Assembly (NCBI GenBank): GCA_963701075.1
Contig: OY969559.1
Coordinates: forward strand, 64,001 to 128,000
DNA: 64,000 bases
DNA from: an uncultured Nitrososphaerota archaeon
GTDB taxonomy: Archaea; Thermoproteota; Nitrososphaeria; Nitrososphaerales; Nitrosopumilaceae
Direction: 5' to 3'
Shown in pieces: positions 3,847 to 49,384 of the stretch. Every line of letters starts with the position of its first letter. Position 1 is the first letter of the stretch. The position numbers were made by a program, and so were the translations under genes. The notes beneath the pieces were generated by a model that saw only the letters and a program-made list of their open reading frames with translations, was not told where the DNA came from and did no database searches.

Positions 3847-3954
3847 CGCCCTTGGCGGGATTTGAACTCGCGTCGAGGCCGTGACAGGGCCCCATTCTAG
3901 ACCGGGCTATACAAGGATTGGATTTTACCCCAAGCCTCTCTATACTACAAGGGC
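3847..3954 (-). tRNA. tRNA-Asp(GUC) with a 33-nt non-canonical intron (3907-3939) at position 15/16
   Basis: Acceptor GCCCTTG/CAAGGGC, anticodon arm GGGCC-CTGTCAC-GGCCT, TTCAAAT T-loop; removing the intron restores the D-arm. Confidence 0.9.
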
Positions 3955-4013
3955 GTTGAAATATTGGGAACAAAAATCTGAGTTTAAAGCTTTCTTTTCA
4001 TCTAAAAATTTTG

Positions 4014-4021
4014 TAAAAGAC
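4014..4021 (+). repeat. Left target-site duplication TAAAAGAC
   Basis: Identical 8-mer at 5269-5276; each copy abuts an inverted-repeat end. Confidence 0.8.
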
Positions 4022-5268
4022 GTCTTTGCCAACATATGGGAGATATATATCATAATTACCCTGCTCTTTTAAGAAAACCAGCATGTGAATGCATATTGCA
4101 AAAGTAATAAAATGCGTCTGGCAATTTCATGATAAAAAAGACGATCTCAGACAAGTTTTTGATTATTTTAGATATTGTGCAAACGAGGCAATCAGAATAG
4201 GTATAGAAAAAGATCTCACGTCAAAATACAAGTTACATTACCAATTATATCATACACTGCGTCTACATTCACAGTTTCATTCCAAGTATGTCTATGGAGC
4301 ACTAGAATGTGCGGCGTCAAAGTTAAAGATGTATAAAAAGACATTGAAGAAAAAACTAGATGCTAAAAGGCCATACATTACAAGAAATCATCTCATACTT
4401 GACAATCAGTCATACAAAATTGAACATGATACAATCAGGATACCAATTAAGGCTACAAAATATCTATCCATTAAACTGACTAGTTATGTTTTAGAGAAGA
4501 TAAAGCATACAAAACTTGGTAGTCTTGTTATCACAGATGATAAGATCATAATCTCATATTCAAAAGAGATTCCAGAACAGAGACATGGTAATTTTATTGG
4601 TGTTGATAGAAACTTGAACAATGTAACCATATGGGATTCCAAAGGAGATTGTATTGTACACGATCTGTCTAGTGCCCAGAGAATAATCACTTTATATAGT
4701 ACAGTAAAAAGCAAATTCAGACGCAATGATTCCAGAATAAGAAAAAAGATTTTCCAAAAATATGGCAGACTACAGAAGAATAGAGTACAAAATATCTTAC
4801 ACTGTACATCCAAGAAGACAGTATCTCAAAATTCTGGAATTGTCATGGAAAACCTGAAAGGAATACGCAAACTGTATAGACGAGGAAACTGGCAGGGAAG
4901 AAAGTACCGGAGAAGATTGAACTCTTGGTCATTTTATGAACTGCAACGACAGATCGAGTATAAAGCAAGATGGCTTGGTCTGCCGGTAGAATATGTCAAA
5001 GCAGGTGGGACAAGCACAAGGTGTGCGGTATGTGGGTCAAGACTAGTACCCGAAGAGCACCGAAAGATGTTCTGTCCTACTTGCAAGAGTAGTGTTGACC
5101 GAGACATCAACGCTGCTCACAACATCTTGCTTCGAGGCACATGGGTCGTGCCAGACGGGACTGCAGGTGAAGCGGTGATGACAGAATCTGGTAGCAAGGA
5201 ACCGGTAATCTGTCGAGTCGATGCAGTCAAGTCAGGTCATCGGCATCTGCCGATAACTTGTCAGAGCC
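4022..5268 (+). mobile_element. Non-autonomous TnpB element with imperfect terminal inverted repeats (IS6-like) and an 8-bp TSD
   Basis: Left end GTCTTTGCCAACATAT vs right-end reverse complement GGCTCTGACAAGTTAT (11/16); flanked by TAAAAGAC direct repeats; no transposase gene. Confidence 0.72.
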
Positions 5269-5279
5269 TAAAAGACTAA
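4089..5279 (+). CDS. tnpB: TnpB-family RNA-guided endonuclease
   Basis: RuvC-I GVDRN, RuvC-II VMENL, SWSFYELQRQIEYKA, Zn finger CAVC/CPTC, RuvC-III DRDINAAHNI. Confidence 0.95.
   Translation: MHIAKVIKCVWQFHDKKDDLRQVFDYFRYCANEAIRIGIEKDLTSKYKLHYQLYHTLRLHSQFHSKYVYGALECAASKLKMYKKTLKKKLDAKRPYITRNHLILDNQSYKIEHDTIRIPIKATKYLSIKLTSYVLEKIKHTKLGSLVITDDKIIISYSKEIPEQRHGNFIGVDRNLNNVTIWDSKGDCIVHDLSSAQRIITLYSTVKSKFRRNDSRIRKKIFQKYGRLQKNRVQNILHCTSKKTVSQNSGIVMENLKGIRKLYRRGNWQGRKYRRRLNSWSFYELQRQIEYKARWLGLPVEYVKAGGTSTRCAVCGSRLVPEEHRKMFCPTCKSSVDRDINAAHNILLRGTWVVPDGTAGEAVMTESGSKEPVICRVDAVKSGHRHLPITCQSLKD
5269..5276 (+). repeat. Right target-site duplication TAAAAGAC
   Basis: Identical to 4014-4021. Confidence 0.8.
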
Positions 5280-5306
5280 ATTATACACAACTATGACCTT
5301 TCGCGT

Positions 5307-5380
5307 GGGTTCGTAGCTCAGCCAGGTAGAGTACCGGACTTTTAATCCGGCTGTCCGGGGTCCGAATCCCCGCGAACCCG
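5307..5380 (+). tRNA. tRNA-Lys(UUU)
   Basis: Acceptor GGGTTCG/CGAACCC, anticodon arm CCGGA-CTTTTAA-TCCGG. Confidence 0.95.
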
Positions 5381-5448
5381 CTTCTTCATTGGTCTCTTTT
5401 TGGGACTCAAGTAGCTGAAAACCCGTCCGCATTTCTCAATTCCAATGG

Positions 5449-6703
5449 ATGGTATGGGATATCATGAGCGGCAACATTAGGCTCTCAGCAGACGAGATAA
5501 AATCAGGACATGAAAATGCCCTTGACATCTTCTACTCCGGGATAAGATCTTCTGAGACTCGCAGAACAATGAACGGCAACCTCGAAAAGTTTCTTCTGGA
5601 CGCATGTGCCGATATATTCAGTGGAGATTACAGGGAGAGGGCAAGACAGTTTGCAGAGATGGCAAAGGAAGACCAGGAAAAGGCCACAAGTCTTGTCTTG
5701 GCATATGCGCGAAAGCTAAGGGAGAGGACTATGCTGGATAAATCAAATCCCGGCTATCTCAACCCCTCTACTCTGCCAAACAAGGTAAAGGCAGTCAAAA
5801 AGTTCCTTGACATGAACGGCCTCGGCCTTGGCTGGAAGAGGGTCTATGTGACATTTCCAGATAAAGACAATACCCACAAGGGAAGGGGATACACAAGACA
5901 CGAGTTGCAAAAGATGCTAGAGTATTCTCGTTCAATCGAGACTGATTTTGTAATACTTGCATCAGAGCTCTGGAGGTTTCAGGTCGGGCTCATGGAATGG
6001 CCAGAGATGGGAGAACGTATTTCCCATCTATGAAGTAAACGGTACATACAAGATAGAGATTGAAAAAGATGATGCCGCAAATGTTGTCTGCGCCGGCATG
6101 GTAATCTACAAGGGAACACCAGACGAGTATGTCTGTCTTATCTCACTTGAGGCCTGGAATAAGCTTGTAGAGTACAAAAAGATCTGGACCGAGAGGATGA
6201 AGAGGCCTCCGACAAGCTCTGATTATCTGGTACTTGCAAGATACGTCAAGCCAACACCGATAACGGATCTGGCAATAAAAAGAAGAATATGGGTGCTGCT
6301 TCTAAGGACTGGCCTTAGGAGTCCGCTCACAGAAGGTCGCAGAAGACACCAAGTTCCTATCACCAACGGGTTTAGACGATACTGGGATAGAATAATGATG
6401 GAGAACGGAAAGAGGCGCGGCACGCTCTCTGCCCTTGTGATAAAGGAGAGACTAATGGGCCATACAGGCGTGGTTACAACAGACAAGAACTATTTCTGGA
6501 CCGATATACTGGACCTTGTCCCAGAATACTTGGATGCCATGCCGGAGCTTGTGGTAGGCGAGGAGATGAGGTTGAGGCACAAGCTTGAGATTGAAAAACG
6601 GGAAAAGGAAAAGCTTGCCGCATCAAACAATGAAAAGGAACAAGCGCTGCAAAAGTTGGCAGAACTAGAGGCCAAGGTACGACGGATGGAAAAGTACAGC
6701 TAG
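5449..6703 (+). CDS. Tyrosine recombinase/integrase (frameshift near 5965)
   Basis: Joining ORFs 5449-6033 and 5957-6703 gives ILASSSGGFRSG (R), IYKGT (K), NGFRR, LMGH and DKNY (Y). Confidence 0.88.
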
Positions 6704-10190: not shown

Positions 10191-10204
10191 CCCGCGAACC
10201 CGCT
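10191..10204 (+). repeat. Distal att repeat (copy of the tRNA-Lys 3' end)
   Basis: CCCGCGAACCCGCT identical to 5369-5382. Confidence 0.85.
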
Positions 10205-38663: not shown

Positions 38664-39870
38664 CTACATGCAGACTACTATGGATGTAATAAAATTGCAT
38701 GTGGAGACTTAATGCATATGCGCAATCACAAGTTCAGGTTATATCCAAACAATGTCATCAAGGCCAGACTAGATGCAACACTTGAAGCCTCACGCTGGTT
38801 ATACAACTACCTTTTGTCCAAAAACCTTCAGTCAAAGGAAGACATGCAGTTTGCTCTTACAGAGCTGAAAGAGAATGAATCGTGGCTGAAACTGTATCAT
38901 AGCAAGATGCTCCAGATGATACCACATAGGATAGATAGTGCAAGAAGATCACTAATAGAGAAGAAAAAGAGAGGATATGATACAGGTCAGCTGCAATATG
39001 CTACAAGGGATGAATGGAGCACATTTGTCTATAACCAATCTGGGTTTGAGATCAAACTACATGGTAAGGCGGATCTGCTCTGGCTGTCAAAGATAGGATG
39101 TATGGAGATAAGATTACACAGGCCAATAAATAGCAATATCAAACAGGTAACCATAACAAAGAAGGCTGAGAAATGGTATGCTATTATTGCAATAGAGACA
39201 CAGCCAATTTTGCCTAAACTCATCAATCTAAAGAAAAGTGTTGGTATTGATGTTGGCATCAAGAATTATGCATATGATTCAGATGGAAATGTAGTACCAA
39301 ATCCACATAACTTGCAGAAGATGTTAAAGCCGCTGGTGAGAGCGCAGAGAAAGCTATCACGAAGAGTCAGGGGTTCATGCAACTACAAGAAGGCAAAACG
39401 TTGGTATCAGATTCTGCATCAGCGAATTGCAAACAGGAGAAAGGATTTTCAGCATAAACTCTCTGCACACTATGCTAAAAAATATGATGTTGTTTTCATG
39501 GAGAGATTACAATTACGGAATATGATAAAAAACCATAATCTTGCCCAGAAAATATTAGATGCAGGATGGGGTTCATTCAAAGATATTGTAGATTACAAAT
39601 GCATGGTTGTAGATGTAGAACCAAGGAACACAACAATAGATTGTTCTAAATGTATAAACAAGGTACCAAAGACACTTGCCATAAGAATTCATGTGTGCGA
39701 TCAATGTGGTTTATCTATTGATCGCGACCATAACGCAAGCCTCAACATACTCAAGCGAGGACTGGCGCTGTGGAACCTACCGATGGAGCATCGGGAAGTC
39801 ACGCCTGTGGAGATCTCACAGAGATCAAGGAAGCAGGAAGAAGCCTATCTACAAGGGTAGAGTAGCTCAC
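38664..39870 (+). mobile_element. tnpB-only IS200/IS605 (IS1341-like) element; left boundary uncertain
   Basis: Right end ...GTAGCTCAC at 39870; hairpin ACATGCA...TGCATGT at 38666-38702; no tnpA, TIR or TSD seen. Confidence 0.7.
38712..39860 (+). CDS. tnpB: TnpB-family RNA-guided endonuclease
   Basis: KFRLYP, GIDVG, FMERL, CSKC/CDQC, DRDHNASLNI. Confidence 0.95.
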   Translation: MHMRNHKFRLYPNNVIKARLDATLEASRWLYNYLLSKNLQSKEDMQFALTELKENESWLKLYHSKMLQMIPHRIDSARRSLIEKKKRGYDTGQLQYATRDEWSTFVYNQSGFEIKLHGKADLLWLSKIGCMEIRLHRPINSNIKQVTITKKAEKWYAIIAIETQPILPKLINLKKSVGIDVGIKNYAYDSDGNVVPNPHNLQKMLKPLVRAQRKLSRRVRGSCNYKKAKRWYQILHQRIANRRKDFQHKLSAHYAKKYDVVFMERLQLRNMIKNHNLAQKILDAGWGSFKDIVDYKCMVVDVEPRNTTIDCSKCINKVPKTLAIRIHVCDQCGLSIDRDHNASLNILKRGLALWNLPMEHREVTPVEISQRSRKQEEAYLQG

Positions 39871-49329: not shown

Positions 49330-49384
49330 GGTTCTGTCAAATCTACGGTTGATAATATCATGCCGAGACTAACTTGACAGAACT
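49330..49384. mobile_element. 55-bp mini-element with IS6-like inverted ends
   Basis: GTTCTGTCAA (49331-49340) / TTGACAGAAC (49374-49383) perfect IR; right end resembles the TnpB element right end. Confidence 0.5.

Follow-up and report, generated by a model that had tools for sequence, protein, structure and literature searches.

An archaeal tnpB gene on a putative non-autonomous transposon with IS6-like inverted ends and 8-bp target-site duplications

What kind of mobile element carries the tnpB gene that lies between a tRNA-Asp and a tRNA-Lys gene in an uncultured Nitrososphaerota archaeon, and what might move it? The gene is found near the start of a 64,000-nucleotide stretch of contig OY969559.1 (GenBank assembly GCA_963701075.1, positions 64,001 to 128,000; G+C content 0.40), hereafter called the window. 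Two families known to carry TnpB, IS200/IS605 and IS607, are described as having neither terminal inverted repeats (TIRs) nor target-site duplications (TSDs) and as relying on an HUH or a serine TnpA (PMC13565253). An earlier, sequence-only reading of the window had proposed that this element has both, that it is of a DDE type resembling IS6, and that a transposase encoded elsewhere mobilises it. The data presented below support the assignment of the element, which spans window positions 4022 to 5268 (1247 bp) and has tnpB as its sole gene, to a TIR- and TSD-bearing, DDE-like and specifically IS6-like type, and not to IS200/IS605 or IS607. This assignment, which agrees with the earlier proposal, draws on TIRs found throughout a family of related elements, TSDs that differ from locus to locus, an unoccupied site in relatives of one locus, and ends that resemble those of the archaeal insertion sequence ISH17.

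At the window locus itself, the 8-mer TAAAAGAC occurs at both edges of the element. Directly inside the two copies, GTCTTTGCCAACATAT (starting at 4022) and ATAACTTGTCAGAGCC (ending at 5268) match as inverted repeats at 11 of 16 positions, as previously noted. The 8-mer is present four times on the plus strand and twice on the minus strand of the window, and a lone perfect 8-bp direct repeat between two intergenic stretches arose in 121 of 1000 shuffles, which makes such a repeat weak evidence by itself. A perfect 8-bp repeat that abuts an inverted repeat of at least 11/16 arose in none of the 1000 shuffles. A perfect 12-nucleotide palindrome (AAAGAC/GTCTTT, 4016-4027) also spans the junction between the left TSD copy and the six outermost bases of the left end.

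These observations raise the question of whether the locus could be an ordinary IS200/IS605 element of the IS1341 group, or an IS607 element, whose repeat and inverted ends are coincidental. Homologues of the protein bear database names such as 'IS605 OrfB' and 'IS200/IS605 family accessory protein TnpB-related', in keeping with this explanation, as is the frequency of lone 8-mer repeats. Related loci provide the stronger evidence here. A protein search returned 1247 homologues, the closest named ones being proteins from Nitrosotalea metagenome-assembled genomes (MAGs), in line with a window that resembles DNA of a Nitrosotalea-group ammonia oxidiser; an alignment of 42 homologues was used to fetch 80 loci (L numbers below) from one-genome-per-species contigs. 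For the 19 closest loci, nucleotide similarity breaks off abruptly at both edges: the left boundary is GGTACTGTCAAGTTATCGG, and the right boundary is the exact reverse complement of that sequence. More broadly, conservation among homologous loci of Nitrososphaerota, Bathyarchaeia and Atabeyarchaeia stops at inverted ends of about 19 bp (GGTACTGTCAAGTT / GGTTCTGTTAACTT), and GGTTCTGTTAACTT-type ends recur in the more distant loci from Bathyarchaeia, other Nitrososphaerota and two complete Atabeyarchaeia chromosomes.

A joint scan for a TIR of at least 12/16 with a flanking direct repeat of at least 7/8 was conducted on 79 loci (the 80 loci plus the window, minus two with arms that were too short). 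Both features were present in 28 of the 79, with 17 TSDs perfect and the 8-mer different at each site, which bears out the expectation that homologous tnpB loci would share the TIR and carry distinct 8-bp TSDs. Decoys joining the left arm of one locus to the right arm of another gave 0/79, and again 0/79 on repetition. When boundaries were set by the TIR alone, a TSD of at least 7/8 was found in 24 of 61 cases versus 2 of 3660 mismatched pairs. The 35 tnpB elements that could be delimited are 1.2-1.36 kb in size and contain no gene other than tnpB. Some elements (L007, L008 and L015) have about 100 extra bases between the left TIR and a conserved, promoter-like block upstream of the gene.

Unoccupied sites were sought by searching the flanks of confident elements, each side separately, against all loci. 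The occupied site of L008 reads ...gggaga TAGGTAAG element TAGGTAAG acattaattt..., and the corresponding empty sites read ...cgaaagg TAGGTAAG acattaattt... in L003 and ...agaaac TAGGTAAG acattaattt... in L020. The single TAGGTAAG in L003 and L020 versus the two in L008 demonstrates a true 8-bp duplication and an element that ends exactly at its TIRs. The insertion site of L003 is likewise unoccupied in L020, where the intergenic sequence is too diverged for an exact comparison. For the window element, an empty site between tRNA-Asp and tRNA-Lys had been anticipated among relatives. None was found, as the sole relative with the locus (L019) is also occupied: its positions 3934-5359 carry the same insertion in the same place, 96% identical to the window copy, and the insertion must thus be older than the divergence of the two genomes. 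The L019 copy has 179 extra bases within tnpB, some of which tandemly repeat positions 438-516 of the window element, and its tnpB is probably disrupted.

Given family-wide TIRs, site-specific TSDs, an unoccupied site at which the 8-mer is present only once, and the absence of decoy matches, we consider coincidence in an ordinary IS200/IS605 or IS607 element to be extremely improbable. Those families, of which IS200/IS605 has subterminal hairpins and IS607 a GG target, make no TIRs or TSDs and are thereby excluded for the tnpB elements, which have both and hold no tnpA. An internal control points in the same direction. A second TnpB gene in the window (38712-39860), whose product is unrelated to the first (24% identity; 243 bits against the guided_TnpB model), has no inverted ends and no duplication, its best TSD being 4/8. 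An origin of the TIRs as an artefact of palindromic IS605-type hairpins was also rejected: TSDs exist, and the 19 bases at each end show no self-complementarity.

The encoded protein has the hallmarks of an RNA-guided TnpB. It scores 128.8 bits against the NCBIfam guided_TnpB model (cut-off 100) and matches Pfam Cas12f1-like_TNB at 6e-19, and its 44.7 bits against the IS607_TnpB model lie far from the cut-off of 350. Matches in the PDB are to TnpB and Cas12f chains, in the C-terminal part only. The RuvC D/E/D triad had been reported as intact, and indeed D173, E254 and D337/D339, together with the zinc-finger residues C312, C315, C329 and C332, are invariant among the 42 aligned homologues. 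The proposal that tnpB lies between the ends holds for the start of the gene but not for its terminus, as the open reading frame (ORF) does not close at the right end but continues across the adjacent TSD to a stop at 5277-5279, outside the element. Relatives stop at a TGA within the right TIR; the window has TGT there, and the change places the stop beyond the right end. In one other locus (L028, 1464-3407), a 647-amino-acid tnpB ORF has an in-frame insert of about 300 amino acids with LAGLIDADG-like motifs in the zinc-finger region, which could be an intein or a homing-endonuclease gene within the gene of another homing-type nuclease.

What transposase, then, might recognise these ends? The IS6/IS26 consensus is GGTTCTGTTGCAAA, with G1, G2 and G7 near-universal, and the ends of archaeal IS6-like members measure 18 bp or more, with mostly 8-bp TSDs among those recorded in a part of Table 5 of the source (PMC6807381). 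The TIRs of the tnpB family are about 19 bp long (GGTTCTGT-like / GGTTCTGTT-type) with GG at positions 1-2 and G at position 7, and in most clades their first 9 bases are identical to the IS6/IS26 consensus (9/9). An annotated archaeal IS6-like element, ISH17 from Haloarcula marismortui plasmid pNG500, is 745 bp long and has ends GGCACTGTCTAGTT and a perfect 8-bp TSD. It agrees with the Nitrosotalea-clade consensus at 12 of 14 positions, with the right end of the window element at 11/14 and with the left end at 7/14. At the level of the family, both the 8-bp TSD and the GG/G7-type TIRs thus correspond to IS6/IS26, with the left end of the window element a diverged variant. No IS6-type DDE transposase lies within the ends, and the element is consequently at most a non-autonomous derivative rather than a member insertion sequence.

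Mobilisation in trans, as the sequence-only reading had suggested, is favored by several features. The elements carry tnpB only, their ends are IS6-like, and the window copy leaves no room for a second gene. In L033, positions 6059-6329 form a non-coding derivative of 271 bp that retains these inverted ends and has a perfect TSD of its own (TGCCAAAA), which indicates that the ends suffice in cis. The 8.9-kb stretch that holds this derivative also has three tnpB copies. The other half of the suggestion, namely the transposase itself, was not encountered. No IS6-like transposase was detected in any element, among 281 scanned flanking ORFs, or by tblastn, in a search that covered about 700 kb of flanks rather than whole genomes. 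Pfam searches of 150 flanking ORFs (L001-L036) returned housekeeping genes, some additional copies of tnpB and a single DDE_3 gene of no relation. NCBIfam searches of 131 of the remaining 232 ORFs (the other 101 were left unscanned) returned no transposase, and the transposases of ISH17 and ISH15 gave nothing below E = 0.6 by tblastn against all 80 loci and the window. A regular-expression search of all loci for more TIR pairs returned only extra tnpB copies, a miniature inverted-repeat transposable element, the LAGLIDADG-inserted tnpB and chance coding matches. We infer, as the best account of these data, that an IS6-like DDE enzyme moves the element in trans.

The failure to find an IS6-like enzyme is compatible with mobilisation by a DDE transposase of another family, such as ISH6, IS1595/ISH4, ISL3 or IS256. 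Both 8-bp TSDs and ends that begin with GG are known outside IS6. Harmer and Hall state that G1, G2 and G7 are present in other families too (PMC6807381), and 11 families of DDE insertion sequences are given for thaumarchaeal genomes (PMC6563490). In favor of IS6 are the nine opening bases that most clades have in common with the IS6/IS26 consensus (9/9) and the 12/14 agreement with ISH17, although only IS6-type ends were compared. We regard another family as a possible but rather unlikely source of the transposase.

In addition to its ends, the family appears to share a structured RNA. DNA conservation in the last ~130 nucleotides before the right end is well above the expectation from a protein identity of about 75%. 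A consensus fold for 17 loci has 31 pairs with 97% of cells paired, compared with 20-41% when the fold is slid along the sequences. Eight pairs are changed on both sides, a number reached in at most 1 of 500 shuffles. These values are supportive rather than independent, and partly circular, as the fold was derived from the same sequences in which the pairs were counted. No Rfam family matches this 3′ region of the element. One helix of the family joins CTTGAC of the right TIR to GTCAAG upstream; in the window, the TIR reads CTTGTC and pairs with upstream GTCAAG-type bases (helix 5). This pairing suggests a dual role for the right end, which would be recognised by the transposase and would also close an omega-RNA-like scaffold at its 3′ side. 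By analogy with where guides lie in TnpB systems already described (PMC13565253), we infer a guide that begins immediately beyond the right end and consists of the 8-bp duplication and the adjoining flank. The predicted guide segment of the window copy overlaps the region upstream of tRNA-Lys.

A further signal is located on the opposite side of the element. For 25 elements outside the Nitrosotalea clade (two of them with hand-anchored boundaries), the bases directly 5′ of the left TSD are biased: T at position -3 in 20/25 (binomial p = 5e-8), T at -2 in 22/25 (binomial p = 3e-10), and G (14/25, p = 3e-4) or A (6/25) at -1. The trinucleotide TTR is present in 17 of the 25, and no mirror motif follows the right TSD in the same set. 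TTR has the place and orientation that would be expected of a target-adjacent motif (TAM). An empty allele would present, in order, TTR, a single 8-mer and the right flank; in an occupied site, the element end (GAACC) precedes the guide-matched sequence. The window copy has TTTG followed by TA. The bias could reflect either the target choice of the transposase or the survival of insertions that TnpB can defend.

The orientation of this motif relative to the element would be unusual for a symmetric DDE transpososome, and it brings to mind a more radical explanation, in which the tnpB-only elements are autonomous and TnpB, alone or loaded with RNA, binds the IS6-like ends and inserts beside a TAM with an 8-bp stagger. 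DDE transposases and the RuvC domain have an RNase H-like fold in common, the catalytic residues do not vary among the aligned homologues, the RNA to which TnpB is expected to bind includes the right TIR, and all 35 delimited elements, from several phyla, have tnpB only, with no transposase in the scanned flanks. However, TnpB was dispensable for transposition in the systems reported in PMC13565253 and PMC3119063, the ends resemble those of a known DDE family that has its own transposase, and a derivative without tnpB has transposed, though TnpB could have acted on it in trans. We therefore view autonomous transposition by TnpB as quite improbable.

Taken together, we think it reasonably probable that 4022-5268 is a non-autonomous, tnpB-only transposon with IS6-type ends and 8-bp TSDs that is mobilised in trans and that spreads further by RNA-guided homing. 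According to this model, the element would be moved by a DDE transposase of the archaeal IS6-like type whose gene lies at another place in the genome, and the last ~130 nucleotides to the right end would be transcribed as an omega RNA whose scaffold ends in the right TIR and whose guide is the right TSD with the flank that follows. TnpB and this RNA would cut the unoccupied allele, in which the TAM-like TTR adjoins the single 8-mer and the right flank, and repair from the occupied chromosome copy would then copy the element into the cut allele. Such homing would require no excision, which would fit a transposon of the replicative IS6 type.

A number of findings weigh against this model. The search of elements and flanks for an IS6-like transposase came back empty, and the circularity of the fold also counts here. 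Nor do the ends point to IS6 alone: 8-bp TSDs and GG ends are found in ISH6, IS1595, ISL3 and IS256 as well. As many as 51 of the 79 loci fell below the combined TIR and TSD thresholds; some of these are at contig ends, and L063 and L067 are one base out of register. Eight loci (L004, L012, L024, L036, L043, L046, L048 and L074) have good ends but no TSD. The TAM interpretation does not hold uniformly, as the TSD of the Nitrosotalea clade is preceded by A-T-A instead of TTR and itself opens with TA: in its ten elements (four hand-anchored, one with a TSD of 5/8), TSD position 1 is T in 9/10 left and 10/10 right copies and position 2 is A in 9/10. No two copies at different sites exceed 92% identity, and with copies within a genome at most 92% identical there is no sign of a very recent transposition burst. 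Finally, the window copy is weak evidence when taken alone, as its left end agrees with the family consensus at only 7/14 positions and its TIR, at 11/16, is just below the threshold of the joint scan. Its TTGCCAA left end is also found in L004 and L012, which argues for a lineage variant rather than random decay. To judge from an insertion common to a related MAG, a diverged left end and the loss of the stop codon within the TIR, the window copy is old.

The features of the window element and of a related sequence are listed in Table 1. The conserved upstream block is probably the tnpB promoter. The short sequence at the end of the list, GGTTCTGTCAAAT...ACTTGACAGAACT, includes a ATAATATCAT block known from the region upstream of tnpB. 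It has no recognisable TSD and looks like an internally deleted remnant.

Table 1. Coordinates of element features in the 64,000-nucleotide window
Feature	Positions	Strand	Basis
TTTG directly 5′ of left TSD, TAM-like target motif	4010-4013	+	Base bias in 25 elements
Left TSD copy, TAAAAGAC	4014-4021	+	Sequence match; shuffle test for repeat plus inverted ends
Left TIR, GTCTTTGCCAACATATGGG, diverged TTGCCAA variant of family consensus GGTACTGTCAAGTTATCGG	4022-4040	+	Conservation limit, 19-locus left-end alignment
Conserved upstream block, ATATCATAATTACC...TCTTTTAAGAAA	4047-4076	+	Near-invariant in close loci (left-end alignment)
tnpB, 396 amino acids, intact RuvC D/E/D and zinc finger	4089-5279	+	Pfam, NCBIfam, alignment
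Omega-RNA-like structured region, overlaps tnpB 3′ end and stops at right end	5136-5268	+	Consensus fold, 17 loci
Right TIR, CCGATAACTTGTCAGAGCC	5250-5268	+	Right-end alignment, conservation limit at 5268
Right TSD copy, TAAAAGAC	5269-5276	+	Sequence match
Predicted guide segment, right TSD and right flank	5269-5288	+	Position of guides in known TnpB systems (PMC13565253)
55-bp mini-derivative of related element, left and right end	49330-49384	+	TIR-pair search

The tRNA genes that neighbor the element were also examined. The element lies between tRNA-Asp on the minus strand and tRNA-Lys (5307-5381), and targeting of tRNA genes was considered as an explanation for its location. This idea was dropped, as most loci are not beside tRNA genes: among 36 scanned loci, only the window/L019 pair, L022 and perhaps L037 are adjacent to one. 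The L022 element has an end 42 nucleotides from a tRNA-Arg, and the window element and that of L037 (Bathyarchaeia, with unrelated flanks) both end 30-40 nucleotides upstream of a tRNA-Lys-like sequence. ARAGORN places the tRNA-Asp gene at 3848-3917, and the Rfam tRNA model does not report it. A perfect 7-bp acceptor stem (GCCCTTG/CAAGGGC) needs a 5′ end near 3955 (region 3848-3957), which would imply an intron-like insert of about 33 nucleotides in the D-arm region.

Downstream of the element, the final 14 nucleotides of tRNA-Lys (5369-5382) are repeated 4.8 kb away at 10191-10204, and similarity between L019 and the window ends at about 5383. This pattern may point to a small integrated element, of which the first two ORFs (5449-6033 and 5957-6703, overlapping in different frames) have no match in Pfam or NCBIfam.

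The presumed benefit of TnpB is the restoration of transposons that excise without a scar, such as IS200/IS605 and IS607. Here, an entire archaeal TnpB clade resides between ends of the IS6 type, and IS6-type elements are copied without excision and make variable 8-bp duplications. If the proposed model is correct, the guide would start with the duplicated target bases, the TAM would lie just outside them, and TnpB would act as a pure gene drive into empty alleles. It would become possible to test what TnpB does for DDE transposons, how the choice of TAM comes to be coupled to the choice of insertion site, and who mobilises the many 'orphan' tnpB genes of archaea. With exact boundaries, natural guides can also be read off, and TAMs proposed, for dozens of compact nucleases from archaea. 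Should TnpB instead prove to move these elements itself, an RNA-guided nuclease would still be working as a transposase.

The earlier suggestion that the system is undescribed survives only in part. An association of TnpB with DDE-type ends is already known: in 2023, Altae-Tran et al. (PMC10691335) reported TnpB on six branches associated with DDE transposons (DDE-1 to DDE-6) and with inverted terminal repeats, naming IS630, as well as solo TnpBs that are flanked by the same DDE-transposon ends and were probably moved in trans. A 2026 review lists ISL2, IS630 and IS1031 for DDE-associated TnpB (PMC13565253). The text consulted of the 2023 study names neither IS6-like ends nor a variable 8-bp TSD, and the other literature consulted contained no link of TnpB to IS6-type ends or to archaeal 8-bp TSDs, though the supplementary branch list of Altae-Tran et al. 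may include this clade. Set against this literature, three aspects appear to be new: ends that are IS6-like, an archaeal clade that is non-autonomous throughout, and the geometry of TAM, TSD and guide.

Compared with the DDE-associated branches as described, the present elements similarly have TnpB between DDE-type inverted repeats, with the 3′ end of tnpB near the transposon end, but no member examined here has a transposase in cis. With IS6/IS26, and specifically with archaeal IS6-like elements such as ISH17, they share the GG start, G7, ends of at least 18 bp and the 8-bp TSD. They differ in carrying tnpB and an omega-RNA-like region with no DDE transposase inside, in their size (1.2-1.36 kb rather than ~0.7-0.9 kb), in the oriented TTR motif beside the TSD, and in their hosts, which are Nitrososphaerota, Bathyarchaeia and Atabeyarchaeia and not Haloarcula marismortui as for ISH17. 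The TnpB elements of IS200/IS605 (IS1341 group) and IS607 resemble them in having a guided_TnpB protein, an omega RNA (here a predicted one) that extends over the 3′ end of tnpB to the right end, and, on the left, a short motif rich in T that is TAM-like in the present elements. In contrast to those elements, TIRs and TSDs are present here, and an 8-bp TSD separates the target motif from the left end.

A parallel also exists with Fanzor, the eukaryotic TnpB, which likewise is an RNA-guided nuclease carried as cargo in DDE-type, TSD-making transposons, and for which the TSD is part of target recognition. The present elements are distinct in belonging to an archaeal TnpB clade and a different transposon family, and in being non-autonomous only. 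Moreover, in the Fanzor-carrying IS630/Mariner (TA) and piggyBac (TTAA) transposons, the TSD is short, largely fixed and read as part of the TAM, whereas in the archaeal elements the guide would start with a TSD that varies from site to site.

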